Of a stretch of DNA of 64,000 bases, positions 4,152 to 47,976 are shown one piece after another (the first letter of the stretch is position 1; every line of letters begins with the position of its first letter). The stretch lies in assembly GCA_964344965.1 (NCBI GenBank), contig CAYFPJ010000002.1, positions 1,068 to 65,067 on the forward strand, in the 5' to 3' direction. This stretch comes from an uncultured Gammaproteobacteria bacterium (GTDB taxonomy: Bacteria; Patescibacteriota; Patescibacteriia; Magasanikbacterales; UBA922). The position numbers and the translations under genes are program-made. Under the pieces are notes generated by a model. It worked only from the letters and a program-made list of their open reading frames with translations. It was not told the origin of the DNA and made no database searches.

Positions 4152-4199
4152 GGCTGGGGTGATGAAGCGAGGCTTAATGCCACCAGCGATGAATCTACC

Positions 4200-4348
4200 A
4201 ATAAAAGTAAATTTGGTTTAAGTAAGACTTCATCGGGCCATCCCCGCAGCAAGCTGCGGGGTATTGGCAGAAAATCTTATTTCAACCAATGTTAGTTTTC
4301 ACTTTTTCGATGCAAGCATCGAGGAATAAAACCGCTTAAAGATTAAAA
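4200..4348 (+). repeat. 149-nt structured interspersed repeat, copy A
   Basis: Near-identical to the copies at 18577, 20057, 41992 and 47828. Begins AATAAAAGTAAATTTGG and ends CCGCTTAAAGATTAAAA. Contains the hairpins CCCCGCAG-CAAG-CTGCGGGG and CGATG-CAAG-CATCG. Confidence 0.9.
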
Positions 4349-8208: not shown

Positions 8209-10164
8209 TCAATTATCAAACCTGACAATCTGATCCTGATCAATTTTCTTAGGCTTGTCCTCACTATCTGCTTTATTCTCTTTTTTAGATCCATTCCCAC
8301 CGCCAGAACCATCTTTGGCAGATCCACCGTTTTTCTTTTTCCTCTTTCTTTTCCTCTTTCGTTTCTTCTTAGGCTTGTCTTCCTTTAATTTTTCTTTCAC
8401 TTCTTCCTTACTTGAGTTTTTGTCTTCGTTATCTTTTATTTCTTCATCCTTTTCTTTTCTTGGCAAAGGTGAAAAGTCTTCTGAATCTTTTAGTTCTTTT
8501 TGCTCTTCATCAAAAAAATCAAGTAGATCCTGATCTTCTTCATCATTAGCTTTTTCTTCATCACTTCCAACCTCATCTTCTTGACCATCTTCTTCATCAA
8601 AAACTTCTGGCAAAGCCTCTCCATCTTTATCTTCGGGAAAATCAAACTTATCATCTGTCGCCAAGTCGTCTTCTTTAGCTTTTTCATTTTTAGGTAACAG
8701 ATCTTCAAGAGAGATATCTTCTTTATCAGATTCTAATTTCTTCTTATCAATCTCTATTTTTTCTTTGTCATCATCTTTTTTATTATCAGTATTTTTTTCT
8801 TTCTTTTTTTCTTTTTCTACTTCTCCACTATCACTACCAGCGATCTCCATCCCACTCCACCTAGTGATCTTCTCTTCGATGATATCACGCGATTTACCAT
8901 ATCTTTCCCGAGATACTCGGATCACTTTGTTAGCGCTCCCAGTAGACGAGCCAAGTGGTGGCATGCCAACCGCGCTGAACGGCTGGGAAGCAACTCCATT
9001 GATCATCAGTTTTAGAAAGATTTGATATTTTGGCAGATTAACAATATGCTCTTCGGTAAAAGTCGGAGCATATTCTTTTGCTAGAGCCTCCGCATCAGCT
9101 GCTCCCACTCGAAAAGTAAGAATACTTCCCACATTGCCAAATACAGCATCAGCTACAGTCTCATCTAGCTGAGCCACGTATTGGTGAGCCATGATCAGAC
9201 CAAGGCGATACTTACGAGCTTCAGACAAAATATTGGCAAAAGACTGAGTAGCAAAATTCTGAAATTCATCTACATAAAGAAAAAAATCATTACGCTCTTC
9301 CTCAGGAATATCTACTCTACTCATAGCGGCCAGTTGGATCTCGGTAATAAGCATTCCCCCGAGAAGACGACTATTGTCCTCCCCAATTCTACCTTTGGAA
9401 AGATTCATGATGAGGATCTTCTTCTGATCCATGATCTCTCGTATATTAATCGTTGATTTCACTTGAGCCACCATATTCCTGATCACACTGGCAGAAAGAA
9501 ACTGACCAATCTTGTTCTGAATTGGAGCGACCGCTTCTTTTTGGTACCTGGGTTCGTAGTTGGCAAATTCTGTAGTCCAAAATGATTTGACGACAGGGTC
9601 TTTCAATTGACGAATAACTTTTCGTCGATATTTCTTATCAGCAAGCATTCTGTTGATCCCAAGTAGTGTAGAGCCTTGAGAATCAAGTAGAGCAAGGAGT
9701 GTATTATTGAGAATGTATTCCATCCTCGCACTCCAGACATCTGGCCAAATCTTCTTGAAGACTCCCATCAGTCCAGAAGCAACAAGATGCTTTTGTTCTT
9801 CAGATTCTACTTCTAGAATATTGAAGCCAATTGGGAACTCTACATCAGCTGGATTGAAGTAAATAACATCATTGGTACGATGAGAAGGAATATAGTCGAT
9901 CAGCTTCTCAGCCATGTCTCCATGAGGATCTACCACTCCGACACCATGACCATTATATATGTCTTGGAGAACCATGTTCTCGAGCATAGTCGTCTTACCC
10001 ATCCCAGTCTTCCCTATCACATACATGTGTCTTCTGCGATCATCTGTCTTGATGCCAAACTTGCGCATCTGATTACGATAATTAGTCTGCGCAAAAAAAC
10101 AGACATGTTGTTTGTCTTCTGTAGATTTTTCTTGTCCCTTTATTTGGAGGTGGTGAGTGGGCAT
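8209..10164 (-). CDS. TraD/VirD4-like P-loop ATPase (T4SS coupling-protein-type AAA-binding domain) with ~230-aa K/E/D-rich low-complexity C-terminal tail
   Basis: Walker A YVIGKTGMGKTT and Walker B FFLYVDEFQNF; overall resembles the TrwB/TraD ATP-binding domain. The tail is poly-charged (KKKRKRKRKRKKK and D/E runs). No other T4SS genes are nearby. Confidence 0.5.
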   Translation of the reverse strand: MPTHHLQIKGQEKSTEDKQHVCFFAQTNYRNQMRKFGIKTDDRRRHMYVIGKTGMGKTTMLENMVLQDIYNGHGVGVVDPHGDMAEKLIDYIPSHRTNDVIYFNPADVEFPIGFNILEVESEEQKHLVASGLMGVFKKIWPDVWSARMEYILNNTLLALLDSQGSTLLGINRMLADKKYRRKVIRQLKDPVVKSFWTTEFANYEPRYQKEAVAPIQNKIGQFLSASVIRNMVAQVKSTINIREIMDQKKILIMNLSKGRIGEDNSRLLGGMLITEIQLAAMSRVDIPEEERNDFFLYVDEFQNFATQSFANILSEARKYRLGLIMAHQYVAQLDETVADAVFGNVGSILTFRVGAADAEALAKEYAPTFTEEHIVNLPKYQIFLKLMINGVASQPFSAVGMPPLGSSTGSANKVIRVSRERYGKSRDIIEEKITRWSGMEIAGSDSGEVEKEKKKEKNTDNKKDDDKEKIEIDKKKLESDKEDISLEDLLPKNEKAKEDDLATDDKFDFPEDKDGEALPEVFDEEDGQEDEVGSDEEKANDEEDQDLLDFFDEEQKELKDSEDFSPLPRKEKDEEIKDNEDKNSSKEEVKEKLKEDKPKKKRKRKRKRKKKNGGSAKDGSGGGNGSKKENKADSEDKPKKIDQDQIVRFDN

Positions 10165-10249: not shown

Positions 10250-10933
10250 TTATGGTTCAAATACTTCCTGTACTGGATATTTGCAAAATCCCTCATGGAT
10301 TCCGTCATTGCCAAATCTTTCCAACCAAGTAGGATTGCTGGAATATTTATACATAAAACTATTTTGCAACGAAGCAACTAACCTGTGTTTGAAAGGATTT
10401 TTCAAAATGTAATTGAAATGTTTCCAGAAGTCAGTAATGTTACGGATGCAGTAATCGTGATATTGGTACCATATTTTTCTGCCTGGTGTTTGGTCTAGTT
10501 TGTTTAACTCACGAGATGAGTCTTTGTGTAGCTTACGAACGAACTCAGTTAGAACATGTTTTTCTTGCTTTGGGACGAAATTCGCTGCGCTCATTTCATC
10601 ATTCCATTCTTTATAGGAAATATTCTCTCGTCTGATAGGAATGACAGATTGAGCCACAGCGAAATCTGTCCCAGTAGGCATATACTTTTTATTAATAGAT
10701 TGCGGCAGTGAAAAAAGTATATGGTAATGATTATCTAATAACACCCATGCATACATTCTGATACTAAACCTTTCAATCGATTGACGAAAAACATTTTGCC
10801 ACAATATCTTTTTATATTCTTTTTCAAAATACTTTTTCCCCTCCCAACACCGCGCCGTCAAAAAATAAGTATGTCCTCCATAAATATGATGCGGTCTATG
10901 TAAATTCCGATTTTGTGTTTGTGACAAGACCAT
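10250..10933 (-). CDS. IS200/IS605-type HUH tyrosine transposase, REP-associated (RAYT-like)
   Basis: HUH motif LLDNHYHILF and a C-terminal YILKNPFKHRLV...YKYSS block (cf. NPVKAGLV...W.YSS of RAYTs). No TnpB partner. Confidence 0.65.
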   Translation of the reverse strand: MVLSQTQNRNLHRPHHIYGGHTYFLTARCWEGKKYFEKEYKKILWQNVFRQSIERFSIRMYAWVLLDNHYHILFSLPQSINKKYMPTGTDFAVAQSVIPIRRENISYKEWNDEMSAANFVPKQEKHVLTEFVRKLHKDSSRELNKLDQTPGRKIWYQYHDYCIRNITDFWKHFNYILKNPFKHRLVASLQNSFMYKYSSNPTWLERFGNDGIHEGFCKYPVQEVFEP

Positions 10934-10954
10934 ACAAAAAATACAAAATTCGGA

Positions 10955-10985
10955 ATGACAAACGAAGCGCAGCGGAGTTTGTCAT
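10955..10985. repeat. perfect hairpin immediately upstream of the RAYT start
   Basis: ATGACAAAC-GAAGCGCAGCGGAG-GTTTGTCAT, a 9-bp stem. It overlaps the stop codon of the methyltransferase gene. Confidence 0.7.
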
Positions 10986-11671
10986 CCACGGATTACACTC
11001 ACAATATTATGCCCCTTCCTCAAATCCCTCCTCTTACCTTTCTTAGAAAAATACTGATCGACTATTTCAAACCCTGAACGAGTGAACAAATCTTCTAACT
11101 CTTCAATTTTAAATCCATAATAATACCTTTCGCCCAGCACTCCCCCGACAGGAGTGATCCAAGGAATGAGGAAATTGGCTCCGTGCTTTTTGAATTTTCC
11201 TTTGTTTACCACTTTGTTGACACTATCAGAAAAAAGATTCCAATTGGTCATCATGATGTGCCCCCCGGGTTTCAAAACTCGTTTCATTTCAGATAATGCT
11301 TTCAGTCTAGATTTTTCATCTGGCAAATGATGCAGTGTAGCGATACAAAAAATAAGATCAAACGTATTATCCTCCAATGGAAGATCCGTCATCTCTGCCA
11401 CTACAAATTTATTATTAGGAAAATCTTTCTTGCCCATCTCTATCTGTCCTTCACTTTGATCGACTCCCACATATTCCATGTCTTGAAATTTATCCAAAAG
11501 ATGGTATAATCGCCCTGCTCCACAACCAATATCAAGAACGCTATCACCATCTTTGATATATTTTTGAAAAGGGAGCATATCGTCCCAAACTTTTTGTCTA
11601 GTAGAAGCAAAAAGTGGCGCGATCTTATCGTAGATATCTTTGTTTTGTTTGATAATTTTTTTTGAATCCAT
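10982..11671 (-). CDS. class-I SAM-dependent methyltransferase, Trm9/ALKBH8-like (Methyltransf_11)
   Basis: SAM motif I VLDIGCGAGR, an acidic motif II and an LKPGG motif. Divergently paired with elp3. Confidence 0.6.
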   Translation of the reverse strand: MDSKKIIKQNKDIYDKIAPLFASTRQKVWDDMLPFQKYIKDGDSVLDIGCGAGRLYHLLDKFQDMEYVGVDQSEGQIEMGKKDFPNNKFVVAEMTDLPLEDNTFDLIFCIATLHHLPDEKSRLKALSEMKRVLKPGGHIMMTNWNLFSDSVNKVVNKGKFKKHGANFLIPWITPVGGVLGERYYYGFKIEELEDLFTRSGFEIVDQYFSKKGKRRDLRKGHNIVSVIRG

Positions 11672-11682
11672 AATTTCTGAAT

Positions 11683-11752
11683 GTAACTCAGGCCTTTAGG
11701 CCTGATAGAACCAATTTTGTTTGATGTAGTCAGGCCTAAAGGCCTGAGTTAC
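11683..11752. promoter_or_regulatory. perfect 23-bp inverted repeat (each arm itself a hairpin) in the divergent MTase/elp3 intergenic region, ending 2 nt before the elp3 ATG
   Basis: GTAACTCAGGCCTTTAGGCCTGA -24 nt- TCAGGCCTAAAGGCCTGAGTTAC. Confidence 0.6.
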
Positions 11753-11754
11753 AT

Positions 11755-17787: not shown

Positions 17788-17897
17788 ACCCCAGGGCAAG
17801 CCCTGGACCCTTTTTTCCGAGGCAAGCCTCGGGGAACCTGCCTGCCGGCAGGCAGGTTAAACCAACCCCTCGTCCCGTACCGAGGAACGAGGTCGGG
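17788..17897. repeat. cluster of four consecutive GC-rich hairpins (REP-like palindromes)
   Basis: CCAGGG-CAAG-CCCTGG, CCGAGG-CAAG-CCTCGG, CCTGCCTGCC/GGCAGGCAGG and CCTCGT...ACGAGG. The loops match the CAAG loops of the 149-nt repeat. Confidence 0.7.
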
Positions 17898-17972: not shown

Positions 17973-19408
17973 TTAATAAAAATAATTTCTATCTTCTAAC
18001 TCTTCCGGCAAATAATCCTGCTCCACCTCTCCCCCAAAATCTGGATTATACTTATAATCTTTACCATATCCAATTTCCTTCATAAAGTCAGTCGGAGCAT
18101 TCCGGAGATGTAAAGGTACACCAAGATGTGAAGTATTCTTAGCATCTCTGGCCGCCCGACCATAAGCTTTGTAAAGTAAGTTTGATTTGGTCGACTTAGC
18201 ACAGTATACCACAGCCTGAGCAAGGTGGACGGTGCACTCAGGCATGCCGATCTTGTGCACTGCATCATACGCTGCGTTAGCTTGAATCATTGCTTCACTA
18301 TTGGCCATGCCGATATCTTCACAAGCGAAGCGAAGCACTCGTCTAGCCACATATAGCGGATCTGCTCCCCCTTCAAGCATCCGAGCAAGCCAATACAGCG
18401 AAGCATCTGCATCACTTCCCCGCATAGATTTATGCAAAGCTGAGATCAGATTGTAAAACTCCTCACCTTTTTTATCAAAAACTAAGTGAGTACGCTGTAA
18501 TGCTTCTTTTATATCGTCAACTGACAAGATAACGCCACCAGATTCACCCCCCCCCTATGAGGGGGAGTCGATCCCGAATAAAAGTAAATTTGGTTTAAGT
18601 AAGACTTCATCGGGCCATCCCCGCAGCAAGCTGCGGGGTATTGGCAGAAAATCTTATTTCAACCAATGTTAGTTTTCACTTTTTCGATGCAAGCATCGAG
18701 GAATAGAACCGCTTTAGATTCAATCGGGACGGAGGGGGTCTCACTGGAAGTCTTCCCAACTACGGCAAGTTCAATACCATTCAAAGCTACTCTCCCATCT
18801 TCCCCACTCAAACTTGCCAAAAATTCGATAGTCTCATTATCAATCTCGACATTATATTTCCCCAATCCTCTATCCTCATCCTCGAGAGCTTGTCTTATAA
18901 GCAGGACAATATCCTCATCACTAAGACTTTTCAAAATAAAAACTCGTGAACGTGAGAGAAGTGGACGGATGATTTCAAAAGAAGGATTTTCCGTAGTGGC
19001 TCCGATGAGTGTAACCACTCCTCTCTCAACATAAGGCAGTAATGCATCTTGCTGGGCCTTATTCCAACGATGAATCTCATCAATAAAAAGCACTGTCTTC
19101 TTATTTTCATTCTGTAACAATTCTGAAGCTTCCTTGACTGCTTTCATCAAATCTCGCTTACCGCTCTCTACTCCTGACAAAGAGACAAACTCTGAATTAG
19201 TTTGCTCAGCTATAATATTGGCGAGACTAGTCTTTCCTACCCCAGGCGGACCCCAAAAAATGATCGAAGATAATTGATCTTGCTCGACCATGCGTCTGAG
19301 TAATTTGCCTTTCCCAACAATTTCTTCTTGACCTACAAATTCATCAAAATTGCGAGGACGCATGCGGTCTGGGAGTGGTCTATTATTCTGTGGCTTTTTT
19401 TCTTTCAT
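17973..19408 (-). pseudogene. rarA: rarA/mgsA (recombination factor AAA+ ATPase) split into two ORFs (18659..19408 and 17973..18527) by an inserted copy of the 149-nt repeat
   Basis: The N-terminal ORF has the Walker A GPPGVGKTSLA and ends with repeat-encoded LDACIEKVKTNIG*. The C-terminal ORF starts at a TTG with ...FDKKGEEFYNLISALHKSMRGS..., which continues the RarA alignment with no residues missing. Confidence 0.7.
18577..18724 (+). repeat. 149-nt structured repeat, copy B (inside rarA)
   Basis: Identical over ~130 nt to the other copies, with a diverged 3' end. It is preceded by an extra C9-TATGA-G6 hairpin. Confidence 0.9.
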
Positions 19409-19418
19409 GAAAATACCT

Positions 19419-20090
19419 TTATCCTTCAGATTTATCTCTCAAATATCCTTCTATAATGGTGTCAGCTTTGGAGAGATTTATTGCTACCAAAACACGAGGA
19501 GGAGTATTGGATTCTAAATAAATCTGCTCTTCCAATGGAATTTTGTGTCCTTCACCTCCCATCAATCTCTCTTGAGCTTCCTTCAAAATTCTAGACATCG
19601 TTATATAAGTTATACCAGCGTATCTAGAACGGATATATTTAGGGCGAACAAAATTTTTATTATTAATCAAAAGACCAAGAATCGTCATCCGTGCAAGCGC
19701 ATCTTCTGCTAAATCTGGACTAAGATATACCTCTCTCCTCAATCTTTCTTTTGTATTGAACTTTTGTGTAAAATGTCTTGAACCATAATTCCGCTGATCT
19801 CCCTCGGGCTTACTTTTGTTACTTTCTTTCATTCTTGATACATTCTCTGCAATTTTCCTTTTATCTAGACCTGTTTTTCTCTGTATGGTTGTCAGAGACA
19901 AGCCATATCTTCCGTCTTCTGGGGGGTATAATCTTCCATCCTCACCTTCCACAGCTCCCAAAAAAATCAAAAATTGTTTTCGATCTTCTTGAATACGACT
20001 CTCAATCATTTCCAAAACCTTAGGACTATATTTGGCATCATATCTTCTATGAGGAAAATAAAAGTAAATTTGGTTTAAGTAAGACTTCAT
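19419..20090 (-). CDS. hypothetical protein with a possible HTH; the annotated start (MKSYLNQIYFY) is encoded by the repeat, and the true start is probably near 20009
   Basis: The first 11 codons lie inside repeat copy C. The segment LSLTTIQRKTGLDKRKIAENVSRM is HTH-like. Confidence 0.35.
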   Translation of the reverse strand: MKSYLNQIYFYFPHRRYDAKYSPKVLEMIESRIQEDRKQFLIFLGAVEGEDGRLYPPEDGRYGLSLTTIQRKTGLDKRKIAENVSRMKESNKSKPEGDQRNYGSRHFTQKFNTKERLRREVYLSPDLAEDALARMTILGLLINNKNFVRPKYIRSRYAGITYITMSRILKEAQERLMGGEGHKIPLEEQIYLESNTPPRVLVAINLSKADTIIEGYLRDKSEG

Positions 20091-20206
20091 CGGGCCATCC
20101 CCGCAGCAAGCTGCGGGGTATTGGCAGAAAATCTTATTTCAACCAATGTTAGTTTTCACTTTTTCGATGCAAGCATCGAGGAATAAAACCGCTTAAAGAT
20201 TTAAAA
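20057..20206 (+). repeat. 149-nt structured repeat, copy C (150 nt)
   Basis: Matches the other copies. It supplies the last 19 codons (TFKSLSGFIPRCLHRKSEN*) of the upstream ORF. Confidence 0.9.
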
Positions 20207-23761: not shown

Positions 23762-23893
23762 CTCTCTCGCAACCCACCACCTGTCCTCCTCCCTTAAAAA
23801 GGGAGGAGGGACGTACTAATAAGTTTGACCTATGCAGCACGTTCTCCCTCCCTTTCTAAGGGAGGGAGACAGAGGGTGGGTTGCGTGGTGAGA
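23762..23893. other. GC-rich multi-stem structured element in the convergent glyA/murG spacer
   Basis: Outer 10-bp stem GCAACCCACC/GGTGGGTTGC encloses two hairpins, CCTCCTCCC-TTAAAAA-GGGAGGAGG and CTCCCTCCC-TTTCTAA-GGGAGGGAG. Confidence 0.6.
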
Positions 23894-25480: not shown

Positions 25481-25518
25481 ATGTACGAAATTACGAACGT
25501 TACGAAATTTGCGAAACG
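25481..25518 (-). repeat. TTTCGTA-type 8-9-bp tandem repeat array (4 units), oriented toward the 25034..25441 gene
   Basis: The minus strand reads TTTCGCAAA TTTCGTAACG TTCGTAA TTTCGTACAT. Confidence 0.7.
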
Positions 25519-25526
25519 TTACTACT

Positions 25527-25600
25527 GCGATAGGATTACCGCCGAAAGGCGGTCTCTACGAACGTTGTCTGTGCCGGCCTGCCTTTCGGCAGGAATCCTA
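25527..25600. repeat. GC-rich nested hairpins between the two TTTCG arrays
   Basis: CCGCC-GAAA-GGCGG and CCTGCC-TTTC-GGCAGG enclosed by TAGGATT/AATCCTA. Confidence 0.6.
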
Positions 25601-25612
25601 ATATTTGAACCA

Positions 25613-25649
25613 CTTTCGCACCCTTCGTACTATTCGTAATTCCGTACAT
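25613..25649 (+). repeat. TTTCGTA-type tandem repeat array (4 units), plus orientation
   Basis: CTTTCGCACC CTTCGTACTA TTCGTAATT CCGTACAT. Confidence 0.65.
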
Positions 25650-25678
25650 CATCTTCATACTTTCAATACGTTCACGTA

Positions 25679-28656: not shown

Positions 28657-28696
28657 ATGTGCGAAATTACGAAAGCTGCGAAATGTACGAAAAAAA
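28657..28696 (-). repeat. TTTCGTA-type tandem repeat array (4 units) ending 5 nt before the helicase-nuclease ATG
   Basis: The minus strand reads TTTCGTACA TTTCGCAGC TTTCGTAA TTTCGCACAT AACTT ATG. Confidence 0.7.
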
Positions 28697-28760
28697 CTTA
28701 ATCTATTCTATATAATCCTAGCACAATTATGTTGCCTTAACAATTCCAACAACAAACAAA

Positions 28761-28796
28761 TTTCGTAACTTTCGTACTGTTCGTAATTTCGCACAT
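28761..28796 (+). repeat. TTTCGTA-type tandem repeat array (4 units), upstream of the hup promoter
   Basis: TTTCGTAAC TTTCGTACTG TTCGTAA TTTCGCACAT. Confidence 0.7.
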
Positions 28797-28828
28797 AAAT
28801 CATCCTGTGGACAAATATTTTGGCTCTA

Positions 28829-29268: not shown

Positions 29269-29332
29269 GTTCCATATTTGTCATCCTGAGCGCAGCGAAG
29301 GATCTTTAGCAAGGAAGACATTCTCTAAGCCA

Positions 29333-29434: not shown

Positions 29435-29549
29435 CGGGCTCCATTTTCGCTTCGCTCAAATTATGCCCGGCAGGCCCGGGGCTTTCTGGGCAAAAAAATA
29501 ATAATTGGCCTGCCCGGCGCAATCACGACAGAGTCGGGATGGAGACGGG

Positions 29550-29709: not shown

Positions 29710-29790
29710 TAATTACGTTCTGTATCACTATTTTAGATACGTTATTGACAAAATCAATAGTATATAAGATTGGAATTAAAAAAATGTTTT

Positions 29791-29818
29791 AGTGCTTAGG
29801 TGTTTAAGTGTTCAAGTG
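29791..29818. repeat. AGTGYTTAR octamer tandem repeats directly after the ftsI stop codon
   Basis: AGTGCTTAGG TGTTTAAG TGTTCAAG TG; as RNA this reads CACUUGAACACUUAAACACCUAAGCACU and is G-poor. Confidence 0.7.
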
Positions 29819-29823
29819 AAAAA

Positions 29824-35835: not shown

Positions 35836-35903
35836 ATTTCAAAATACACCAATTAAGCCAGAGCAGTTAACTACCATATGAGAGGTAAATAATTCCAATT
35901 CAA

Positions 35904-35957
35904 AAGTGTTTAAGTGTTTAAGTGTTTAAGTGCTAAAGTGCTAAAGTGCTAAAGTGC
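35904..35957. repeat. AGTGYTTAA/AGTGCTAAA octamer tandem repeats (3+3 units) directly after the epimerase stop codon
   Basis: (AGTGTTTA)x3 (AGTGCTAA)x3 AGTGCC; as RNA this is (CACUUUAG)x3 (CACUUAAA)x3 and is G-poor. Confidence 0.8.
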
Positions 35958-35962
35958 CAAAA

Positions 35963-41967: not shown

Positions 41968-41991
41968 CGATAGTTACAAATTACTAGTTAA

Positions 41992-42140
41992 AATAAAAGT
42001 AAATTTGGTTTAAGTAAGACTTCATCGGGCCATCCCCGCAGCAAGCTGCGGGGTATTGGCAGAAAATCTTATTTCAACCAATGTTAGTTTTCACTTTTTC
42101 GATGCAAGCATCGAGGAATAAAACCGCTTAAAGATTAAAA
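41992..42140 (+). repeat. 149-nt structured repeat, copy D
   Basis: Full-length match to the other copies; lies between convergent genes. Confidence 0.9.
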
Positions 42141-45305: not shown

Positions 45306-45442
45306 TAACGAGTAGTGTGAATTAATTTTCACAATTGGCTGAATTGAACTATTTTTGAAGCGAGGACTGTTTGAGCGAAGCGAGTTTCGCAGCGAAAAAA
45401 TAGCTCAATTCAGACAAAAAAATTAATTCACACTACTCGTTA
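45306..45442. repeat. 137-nt element with perfect 24-bp terminal inverted repeats (MITE-like long hairpin)
   Basis: TAACGAGTAGTGTGAATTAATTTT...AAAATTAATTCACACTACTCGTTA. A nested second inverted repeat and GCGAAG/GCGAAA repeats lie inside. Confidence 0.8.
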
Positions 45443-47259: not shown

Positions 47260-47849
47260 CACAAATTGCTACTTTCATGGATACTGATGCCACTGAACCA
47301 AGTGAGGGTAATATCAGAGAAGGATGGACCTCTGACGCACATTTGCGCAAATTAGAAAGTGTAGTAATGCACGAAAACCACCAAAACCAGACTTTTGCTG
47401 ATATTGCAGAAAATGCTGGAGAAAGAAGTAAAAGCCCTGCTGTAAAAATTCTTCTGAAAATAGGCGGACAAATTAACGGATTGAGGCGCATGACCGATAA
47501 AGAACCGATCAAAGACGAAGTTGACAAACTAATCAGAGAGGCCGCAGAGGAAATTGATCAGCTGGAGGATGGAACTAAAAAAGAACGCCTAGACTCACTG
47601 TTGGATTATAATGCTGGTGAGTGGAATAGAGTTATGGGAAATTATGACCTGGCTGCTGAATTGAAAAAACGCTCTGCAACCAAAGCCGAGACAAGCGGGG
47701 ATAGAGTAGGTGCCTCTATCGGGTATGTCGGTGAAAGTGTTCAGAAAGTGAATGAAGCTTTGGTAAATGGTGACCAAACAGAAATAGCTGCGAATCTAGA
47801 AGAAATGATTAGTCGTTCTGATCATCTAATAAAAGTAAATTTGGTTTAA
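47220..47849 (+). CDS. hypothetical protein (TTG start in the track; the last 6 codons, IKVNLV*, come from the repeat)
   Basis: ORF with higher GC than its neighbours; no motif. Confidence 0.35.
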   Translation: MVIGEIPNHEKLATQIATFMDTDATEPSEGNIREGWTSDAHLRKLESVVMHENHQNQTFADIAENAGERSKSPAVKILLKIGGQINGLRRMTDKEPIKDEVDKLIREAAEEIDQLEDGTKKERLDSLLDYNAGEWNRVMGNYDLAAELKKRSATKAETSGDRVGASIGYVGESVQKVNEALVNGDQTEIAANLEEMISRSDHLIKVNLV

Positions 47850-47976
47850 GTAAGACTTCATCGGGCCATCCCCGCAGCAAGCTGCGGGGTATTGGCAGAA
47901 AATCTTATTTCAACCAATGTTAGTTTTCACTTTTTCGATGCAAGCATCGAGGAATAAAACCGCTTAAAGATTAAAA
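47828..47976 (+). repeat. 149-nt structured repeat, copy E
   Basis: Full-length match; separates two GC-richer ORFs. Confidence 0.9.

Follow-up and report, generated by a model that had tools for sequence, protein, structure and literature searches.

A probable REPtron in a Magasanikbacteria genome: a RAYT gene with related hairpins upstream of and within its reading frame

Introduction

The window analysed here is a 64,000-nucleotide (nt) stretch of an uncultured bacterium of the Magasanikbacterales (Patescibacteriota; GenBank assembly GCA_964344965.1, contig CAYFPJ010000002.1, positions 1,068 to 65,067). At 10250-10985 it contains a gene for an IS200-like HUH (histidine-hydrophobic-histidine) transposase and, just upstream, a perfect hairpin. 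This locus raises the question of whether the gene belongs to an insertion sequence (IS) or encodes a REP-associated tyrosine transposase (RAYT), and whether the hairpin is a repetitive extragenic palindromic (REP) element on which such an enzyme would act. We found that the locus is probably a small 'REPtron', in which a domesticated, vertically inherited RAYT is accompanied by three cognate REP-like hairpin copies. One copy is the upstream hairpin, and the other two form an inverted, in-frame pair within the coding sequence, which the original prediction from the letters of the window had missed.

The protein is of the RAYT/TnpAREP type

The gene (10250..10933, (-) strand) is an intact open reading frame (ORF) of 227 residues with an ATG start. 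We read its HUH motif as N68-H69-Y70-H71 (10721..10732, (-)) and its catalytic-tyrosine motif as Y175-I-L-K-N179-P180 (10394..10411, (-)), the latter within the C-terminal block FNY175ILKNPFKHRLV...YKYSS. In an alignment of 27 homologs, the residues of the HUH and Tyr/KHRLV...YKYSS blocks are invariant or nearly so. The family-invariant residues include N68, H69, Y70, H71, W155, Y175, N179, P180, H183 and S199, and all of them are present in the window protein.

The NCBIfam model REP_Tyr_transpos matched the protein with 78.1 bits, 2 bits under its equivalog cut-off of 80, and Pfam Y1_Tnp ('Transposase IS200 like') matched with 24.2 bits at a cut-off of 23. The NCBIfam IS200 models gave no match to it. 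Among the aligned homologs, REP_Tyr_transpos matched 27 of 27 (best 6.5e-36), and transpos_IS200 matched 8 of 27, weakly. A sequence search of the PDB found 4er8 (Escherichia coli TnpAREP) as the sole solved structure, with the HUH and YI..NP.KH blocks aligned and YILKNP of the window protein facing YIYINP. With the family profile, 4er8 was found at 1.4e-13 and ISDra2 TnpA at about 0.8. The AlphaFold2 model (mean predicted local distance difference test score, pLDDT, 77; core >90) returned 4er8 as the top Foldseek match (E 1.9e-7), with the IS608, ISDra2 and IS200 structures next at about 1e-4.

The Y---NP motif is the signature of class 2 TnpAY1/RAYT proteins, and Y---Q is that of class 1 IS200 (Quentin 2018, Table 1, PMC6006769). 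Because of the motifs, the REP_Tyr_transpos matches, the profile and Foldseek searches and the invariant residues, we assign the window protein as an intact class 2 Y1 (single-tyrosine) HUH enzyme of the RAYT/TnpAREP type, not a canonical IS200 TnpA. The original prediction had judged the HUH motif and an NP..K..LV...YSS block to fit RAYTs, and the motif, REP_Tyr_transpos and 4er8 matches bear this out. Homologs are found mostly in Patescibacteria, especially Magasanikbacteria, with remoter ones in many uncultured lineages; the closest relative among species representatives is 66% identical.

Three related hairpins lie at the RAYT gene

The upstream hairpin, REP-A (10952..10985, (+)), was matched by two covariance models, R1 and R2, and consists of a GGAAT tag and the arms ATGACAAAC/GTTTGTCAT with the apex GAAGCGCAGCGGA; its full layout is GGAATGACAAAC-GAAGCGCAGCGGA-GTTTGTCATCC. 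As originally predicted, the arms form a perfect 9-bp stem. They lie at 10955-10985 with 13 nt between ATGACAAAC and GTTTGTCAT, and the hairpin is 21 nt from the RAYT ATG. REP-A scored 38.6 bits with R1 and 35.7 bits (E 8e-8) with R2, a model rebuilt from 59 hairpins taken from other genomes only. An exact or 3-mismatch search found this hairpin nowhere else in the window, and one match occurred in 5 of 100 window shuffles. Its fold is modestly unusual, with a DNA minimum free energy (MFE) of -8.8 kcal/mol and a z of -2.4. The significance of REP-A thus comes from its membership of a hairpin family, as scored by R2, and not from its fold alone.

The other two copies are located within the RAYT ORF. 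REP-B (10638..10671, (+)), with the sequence GGAATGACAGATT-GAGCCACAGCGA-AATCTGTCC, has the orientation of REP-A and scored 42.6 bits with R2 (E 8e-10). REP-C (10573..10605, (-)), with the sequence GGAATGATGAAAT-GAGCGCAGCGA-ATTTCGTCC, is inverted relative to REP-B and scored 41.1 bits (E 2.3e-9). Together they form a REPIN-like inverted pair with the tags facing inward (10573..10671), which occupies residues 88-121 in frame. R2 gave exactly three window matches, which are these copies, with the next-best at E 0.07, and R1 gave the three as significant window matches and nothing else.

REP-A, REP-B and REP-C have in common a conserved apex, the tag GGAAT on the 5' side and the foot ATGA, which leads into the stem. 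Their stems are AT-rich and 8-9 bp long; the stem sequences differ from copy to copy yet are complementary within each. On the basis of established DNA chemistry, a GNA mini-hairpin (GCG-N-AGC) with flanking G.A pairs could form at the conserved apex GAGCGNAGCGA. Neither REP-A nor REP-B was picked up by a strict loop pattern (GAGCGNAGCGA plus stem), which also recovered few relatives. A generic scan for a GGA-N-T tag followed by any hairpin gave 40 window matches compared with 11-40 for control tags, so a match to the tag by itself does not identify a family member.

REP-A and REP-B form a direct repeat, with the start codon and the HUH half (5' half) of the gene between them. The idea that hairpins always bracket the N-terminal half in the same orientation was dropped, as the start-codon hairpin of the relatives occurs in either orientation.

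The same hairpin family accompanies RAYT genes in other genomes

In an alignment of 25 hairpin copies, 92% of the cells are paired, compared with 24-48% when the partners are slid, and 7 of 11 stem pairs show compensatory changes. Across 80 genome loci centred on RAYT homologs (454 kb), 56 of 59 model matches lie inside a RAYT gene (20) or within 200 nt of one (36); this zone makes up about 17% of the sequence, and the model was trained on near-gene copies. The inserts in the homologs are hairpins of the same kind, usually as an inverted pair and in one case as four copies (L019), and the genes are flanked by them too. The original prediction had proposed a check for copies of the upstream hairpin or of a 149-nt repeat beside other RAYT genes of the genome. 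In the loci fetched from other genomes, the hairpin family accompanies RAYT homologs, and the 149-nt repeat occurs in 0 of 132 fetched loci.

Flanking hairpins with the GGA-N-T tag were found in many relatives, on one or both sides of the gene, including relatives with different stems. The feet that follow the conserved GGA in these relatives are GTGA, GTAG, TTGA, TTAG or ATAG. Hairpin type tends to track the RAYT lineage: the L011/L012/L017 group carries GGAATGGCGAAC-GTAA-GTTCGCC within the gene and a near-identical hairpin upstream, and L020, which has no insert, carries GGAATAACTCAC...GTGAGTT on both sides. L015 departs from this tendency, as its internal and flanking hairpins differ. Furthermore, the association of hairpin and RAYT persists in four genomes in which the methyltransferase gene that adjoins the window RAYT is missing (L008, L009, L014, L019).

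An exact search for the pattern ACGAAATGAG-N4-8-CGAATTTCGT found 52 JGI (Joint Genome Institute) metagenome contig stretches. Twelve of them have a RAYT homolog over the match or within 84 nt. In the other 40 the fetched stretch contains no RAYT, and at least 24 of these have the match more than 700 nt away from both stretch ends. Many of the 52 represent the same site in related strains, which leaves roughly ten distinct free-standing and eight RAYT-linked sites. Most of the free-standing copies are inverted doublets in intergenic DNA, about 80-100 nt long and with outermost tags, and a few occur in G+C-rich, non-Patescibacteria contexts. These doublets fit a low-abundance REP/REPIN-like family of the kind reported for RAYT group 4 of Bertels, in which a replicon contains the flanking 16-mers about 14 times (PMC5581495). 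Pair geometry differs between locations: 13 of 16 pairs within RAYT ORFs have the tags inward, and 27 of 33 flanking and free-standing pairs have them outward (both counts include redundant strains).

Two side observations concern these copies. At L132, L124 and L093/L099 the free-standing doublets themselves lie inside an inverted repeat of larger size (...CTGTCCAAAAA... / ...TTTTCGGACAGTCTGA...), which suggests compound palindromic elements. In L016, L018 and L064/L021 the RAYT homologs are frameshifted, truncated or contig-split at the intragenic hairpin insert, which could reflect decay of the gene or a break of the assembly at this repeat.

REP-A also overlaps the end of the gene upstream. 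Its far arm holds the TGA stop codon (10982-10984) of the methyltransferase gene, as Di Nocera et al. 2013 (PMC3733652) note for REP termini, which often supply stop codons to flanking ORFs. REP-A could then be a mere terminator or mRNA 3' stabiliser of that gene, unrelated to the transposase. The hairpin begins at the stop codon, a T-rich stretch follows 6 nt past the stem on the coding strand, and REPs are known downstream of ORFs both as suppliers of stop codons and as RNA elements (PMC3733652). However, the terminator scan made no call at this hairpin, which has a 13-nt loop and an AT-rich stem with G-C in 3 of 9 pairs. In addition, its tag, stem register and apex recur in the two intra-ORF copies and in the hairpins that flank RAYT homologs with other neighbours. 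The exact or 3-mismatch search, which found REP-A alone, had first suggested a unique terminator, a reading that the terminator scan does not support. Terminator and REP roles are compatible, and between the two genes REP-A may also stabilise an RNA 3' end or act as an attenuator; only the claim that it has nothing to do with the transposase is disfavoured, and we consider that claim improbable.

The intragenic pair is read in frame within a predicted loop

On the coding strand, REP-B is translated as TDFAVAQSV and REP-C as NDEMSAANFV. The two copies fold into one long hairpin with a DNA MFE of -23.4 kcal/mol (z -5.0), and none of 200 shuffles folded as well. In the AlphaFold2 model, residues 76-123 are a predicted disordered loop (pLDDT <50) that includes the REP-encoded residues 88-121. 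According to the homolog alignment, these residues fall in a segment of variable length between the HUH strand and the next helix, and homologs carry equivalent hairpin pairs at the same protein position. In comparison with the closest DNA relative, third-codon identity is 0.91 and 0.73 in the REP-encoded codons and 0.47-0.49 in the core (11 codons each). This third-position conservation hints at DNA-level constraint or gene conversion.

About 34 repeat-derived residues in the middle of a protein might also mark a decaying relic, disrupted by repeat insertions and no longer functional, and the relatives L016, L018 and L064 are frameshifted or split at exactly this insert. However, the window ORF is intact and keeps every invariant residue, and the insert is retained in frame in homologs of 60-68% identity. 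The model points the same way, with a confidently predicted core and the insert in a predicted peripheral, disordered loop. The same tolerance has been reported for subclass 2.4 (PMC6006769). We therefore regard a relic as very unlikely.

The 149/156-nt repeat and other palindromes as proposed substrates

The original prediction had noted several palindrome families in the window, and we recovered them: a 149/156-nt repeat in five copies and several others. The five copies of the repeat (4193-4348, 18570-18725, 20050-20205, 41985-42140 and 47821-47976) are 97-100% identical, share one orientation and lie between genes or overlap only predicted gene ends. The repeat is 74% self-complementary over 100 nt and contains two hairpins with a CAAG loop, namely CCCCGCAG-CAAG-CTGCGGGG and TCGATG-CAAG-CATCGA. 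In L001, short-read contigs from this organism break off within the repeat. None of the 132 loci retrieved from other genomes and metagenomes contains it, it had no Rfam match, and it looks like a species-specific miniature inverted-repeat transposable element or a small structured RNA gene family.

Could this repeat, or another of the palindromes, be the real RAYT substrate, with the three small hairpins incidental? Its five near-identical, same-orientation and partly self-complementary copies in 64 kb, the short-read contig breaks and the fact that the RAYT-type hairpin is not dispersed in the window would favour this. However, no copy of the repeat lies within 6 kb of the RAYT gene, none contains a GGAAT-foot hairpin, R1 and R2 report nothing in the five copies at E up to 5-10, and the repeat is missing from all loci of the RAYT relatives. 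All RAYT systems described so far have their cognate repeats on the flanks of the gene (PMC6006769). The proposal that the 149-nt repeat, the CAAG-loop hairpins or the GC hairpins are substrates could not be upheld, as none of them adjoins the gene or shows a relation to the RAYT hairpin, and we judge this explanation highly improbable.

The RAYT gene is single-copy and keeps its neighbour

A class I S-adenosylmethionine-dependent methyltransferase gene (10982..11671, (-); Pfam Methyltransf_11, 1e-25) is the conserved upstream neighbour of the RAYT gene. The order ELP3-like gene (divergent), methyltransferase, RAYT was found in seven other Magasanikbacteria (L006, L007, L011, L013, L015, L018, L064). 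Identity to the window proteins at these loci is 55-61% for the methyltransferase and 63-70% for ELP3. For RAYT it is 43-56% at the six loci with a full-length match, the L064 contig holding the first 78 residues only. The number, type and presence of hairpins at the syntenic locus vary among the genomes.

A tblastn search of the window found no second RAYT copy (all other matches E > 0.6). The adjacent genes, which encode the methyltransferase and a TraG/TrwB-like ATPase, are not tnpB, and ten TnpB-sized ORFs elsewhere in the window contain no TnpB domains. The prediction of a solo gene without TnpB therefore stands. The ATPase gene downstream (8209-10164, (-)) encodes a TrwB/TraG-like coupling protein with a C-terminal tail of ~230 residues that is very rich in Lys, Glu and Asp, and L014 has an 82% identical homolog of it downstream of its RAYT homolog.

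This copy number and synteny are the behaviour of a domesticated RAYT and not of an IS. A canonical autonomous IS200-type IS, with tnpA between two terminal hairpins of which the upstream one would be the left end, is extremely unlikely: the shared Y1 HUH fold with IS608, ISDra2 and IS200 structures at about 1e-4, the Y1_Tnp score over threshold, the weak transpos_IS200 matches in 8 of 27 homologs and the two or three paralogs per genome in some relatives speak for it, but the Tyr motif is Y---NP and not Y---Q, the match to TnpAREP is far better than that to IS200/IS605 TnpA, there is one copy in 64 kb at a position beside the methyltransferase that is conserved in seven other genomes, no hairpin lies downstream, and same-genome paralogs are divergent and not near-identical.

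Comparison with known systems

In-frame REP insertions within tnpAREP genes have been described for subclasses 2.4 and 2.8 (Quentin, Siguier, Chandler, Fichant 2018, PMC6006769). Subclass 2.8 is characterized by NHYH, W[YH], YIHYNP and a proline-rich N-terminus, and some members have a REP insertion (PMC6006769). The window protein has NHYH, W155-Y156 and the in-frame REP insertion, together with the Tyr motif YILKNP and an N-terminus with only HRPHH. Judged from the motif table and not from a tree, it appears closest to TnpAY1 subclass 2.8 or 2.4. It shares with them NHYH, W followed by Y, Y---NP, low copy number and REP hairpins flanking the gene. It differs in its Tyr motif (YIHYNP in 2.8, YIxNNP in 2.4), in its host, the Patescibacteria (Magasanikbacteria) being unmentioned in PMC6006769, and in its hairpins, which have AT-rich and not G+C-rich stems and an ATGA foot after the conserved GGA in place of GT[AG]G. 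Feet other than GT[AG]G are also reported for subclass 2.6 and class 3 (PMC6006769).

The E. coli RAYT (YafM/TnpAREP, 4er8) is the best sequence and structure match, with the same HUH and Tyr core and with cognate hairpins at its gene. The equivalents of its W94 and R104 are kept in the window protein (W155, R164). However, identity is about 18%, and the equivalents of Q95 and H101 are Tyr and that of E100 is Asp. E. coli also has hundreds of dispersed REPs (REP and bacterial interspersed mosaic elements, BIME) with a GTAG foot and no REP within the gene, unlike the window. The TnpA proteins of IS200/IS605 (IS608, ISDra2) share the Y1 HUH fold, and the way in which they recognize imperfect hairpins on single-stranded DNA serves as the model for the mechanism; the Y---Q motif, the multicopy element with left and right ends and the frequent tnpB of these elements do not apply to the window locus.

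The intragenic pair resembles REPINs (Bertels and Rainey 2011), which consist of two inverted REPs with a short spacer and can fold as one long hairpin, and the relatives' intergenic doublets resemble them as well. Unlike REPINs, the window doublet lies within the RAYT ORF with the tags inward, whereas the free-standing doublets of the relatives have them outward. It also recalls the Rickettsia palindromic elements and intragenic REPs (PMC3733652), in which palindromes lie in frame in coding genes and are tolerated in loops, but here the repeat sits in the gene for what is presumably its own transposase.

Other palindromes and repeats in the window

The Rfam scan assigned no family to any of the palindromic elements and reported two tRNAs only. 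Long intergenic palindromes of 74-170 nt with ends ATGT(A/G)... / ...(C/T)ACAT are located at 11681-11754, 25481-25650 and 28657-28797. The first lies between the divergent ELP3 and methyltransferase genes and is made up of two TCAGGCC-TTT/TAA-GGCCTGA hairpins, and the other two contain repeated ACGAAA(T) motifs. Other species have different palindromes at the ELP3/methyltransferase intergenic site, for example CCTGCCTGCCGGCAGGCAGG in L013. This GC-rich palindrome also occurs in the window at 17835-17858 and in L012 and L017, and so represents another shared family of small palindromes. A further palindrome of ~135 nt (45307-45441) has 24-nt outer arms (AACGAGTAGTGTGAATTAATTTT...) and central mini-hairpin motifs of the GCGAAGC type (GAAGCGAGGACTGTTTGAGCGAAGCGAGTTTCGCAGCGAA).

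Short hairpins on either side of tRNA-Met (29283-29303, which is GTCATCCTGAGCGCAGCGAAGGATC, and 29441-29463) carry the RAYT-hairpin apex GAGCG(C/A)AGCGA. They were rejected as members of the RAYT-hairpin family, having neither tag nor stem and a model E of 0.4-2. This apex motif is seen in many bacterial genomes.

Polypyrimidine/polypurine hairpins, such as TCTCTCTCCT-ttt-AGGAGAGAGA and CCTCCTCCCTT-aaa-AAGGGAGGAGG, were found at 552-574, 659-681, 1737-1759, 23785-23809 and 23843-23869, and are possibly terminators of an organism-specific type. Tandem 8-nt units (AGTGYTTA/AGTGCTAA) are present in two places separated by 6 kb (29783-29823 and 35897-35961).

Discussion

By analogy with E. coli TnpAREP and IS608 TnpA, the RAYT enzyme would bind the folded hairpin on single-stranded DNA and read the nucleotides of its foot. 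It would then cleave nearby through Tyr175 and a metal held by His69 and His71, leaving ends that could be rejoined. Such cleavage and rejoining would be how the hairpins are copied or moved, and hence propagated. In translation, REP-B and REP-C give a predicted disordered loop on the protein surface, which follows the HUH strand and comes before the helix ahead of the catalytic Tyr.

Several points weigh against reading the locus as a REPtron. R1 and R2 found no dispersed copy of the RAYT hairpin in the other ~63 kb of the window, so that a genome-wide REP population in the source organism is hypothetical. The same models found no hairpin copy downstream of the RAYT gene. All three window copies have ATGA as their foot, in place of the canonical GT[AG]G, and two guide-contacting residues of the E. 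coli enzyme (Q95, H101) align with Tyr. Finally, the enzymatic activity of the protein is presumed by homology only. We regard the REPtron as the likely explanation of the locus.

The intragenic hairpin pair may be more than a tolerated insertion. We think it unlikely that the pair is a selected part of the system, through which the enzyme could act on its own gene. If this were true, the RAYT might regulate itself through binding to hairpins in its own DNA or mRNA, or it might excise or invert the 5' half of its gene as a self-limiting switch. A master repeat copy within the gene would also guarantee the joint inheritance of repeat and enzyme.

A RAYT with flanking and in-frame hairpins is an arrangement already described in other phyla; what is new here is the host phylum and the atypical foot. 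The locus extends the association of RAYT and REP, including REPs translated within the transposase gene, to the Patescibacteria, bacteria with very small genomes that are not usually thought to keep repeat systems. A hairpin type that combines a GGA-NT[GA][AG] foot with covarying, AT-rich stems and a GNA mini-hairpin at the apex would escape REP searches that need GT[AG]G and G+C-rich stems, and the covariance model from this analysis can be reused to annotate such elements in the genomes of candidate phyla. Furthermore, the conserved position beside the methyltransferase provides orthologous loci for dating the gain and loss of hairpins, which bears on what RAYTs do for their hosts.

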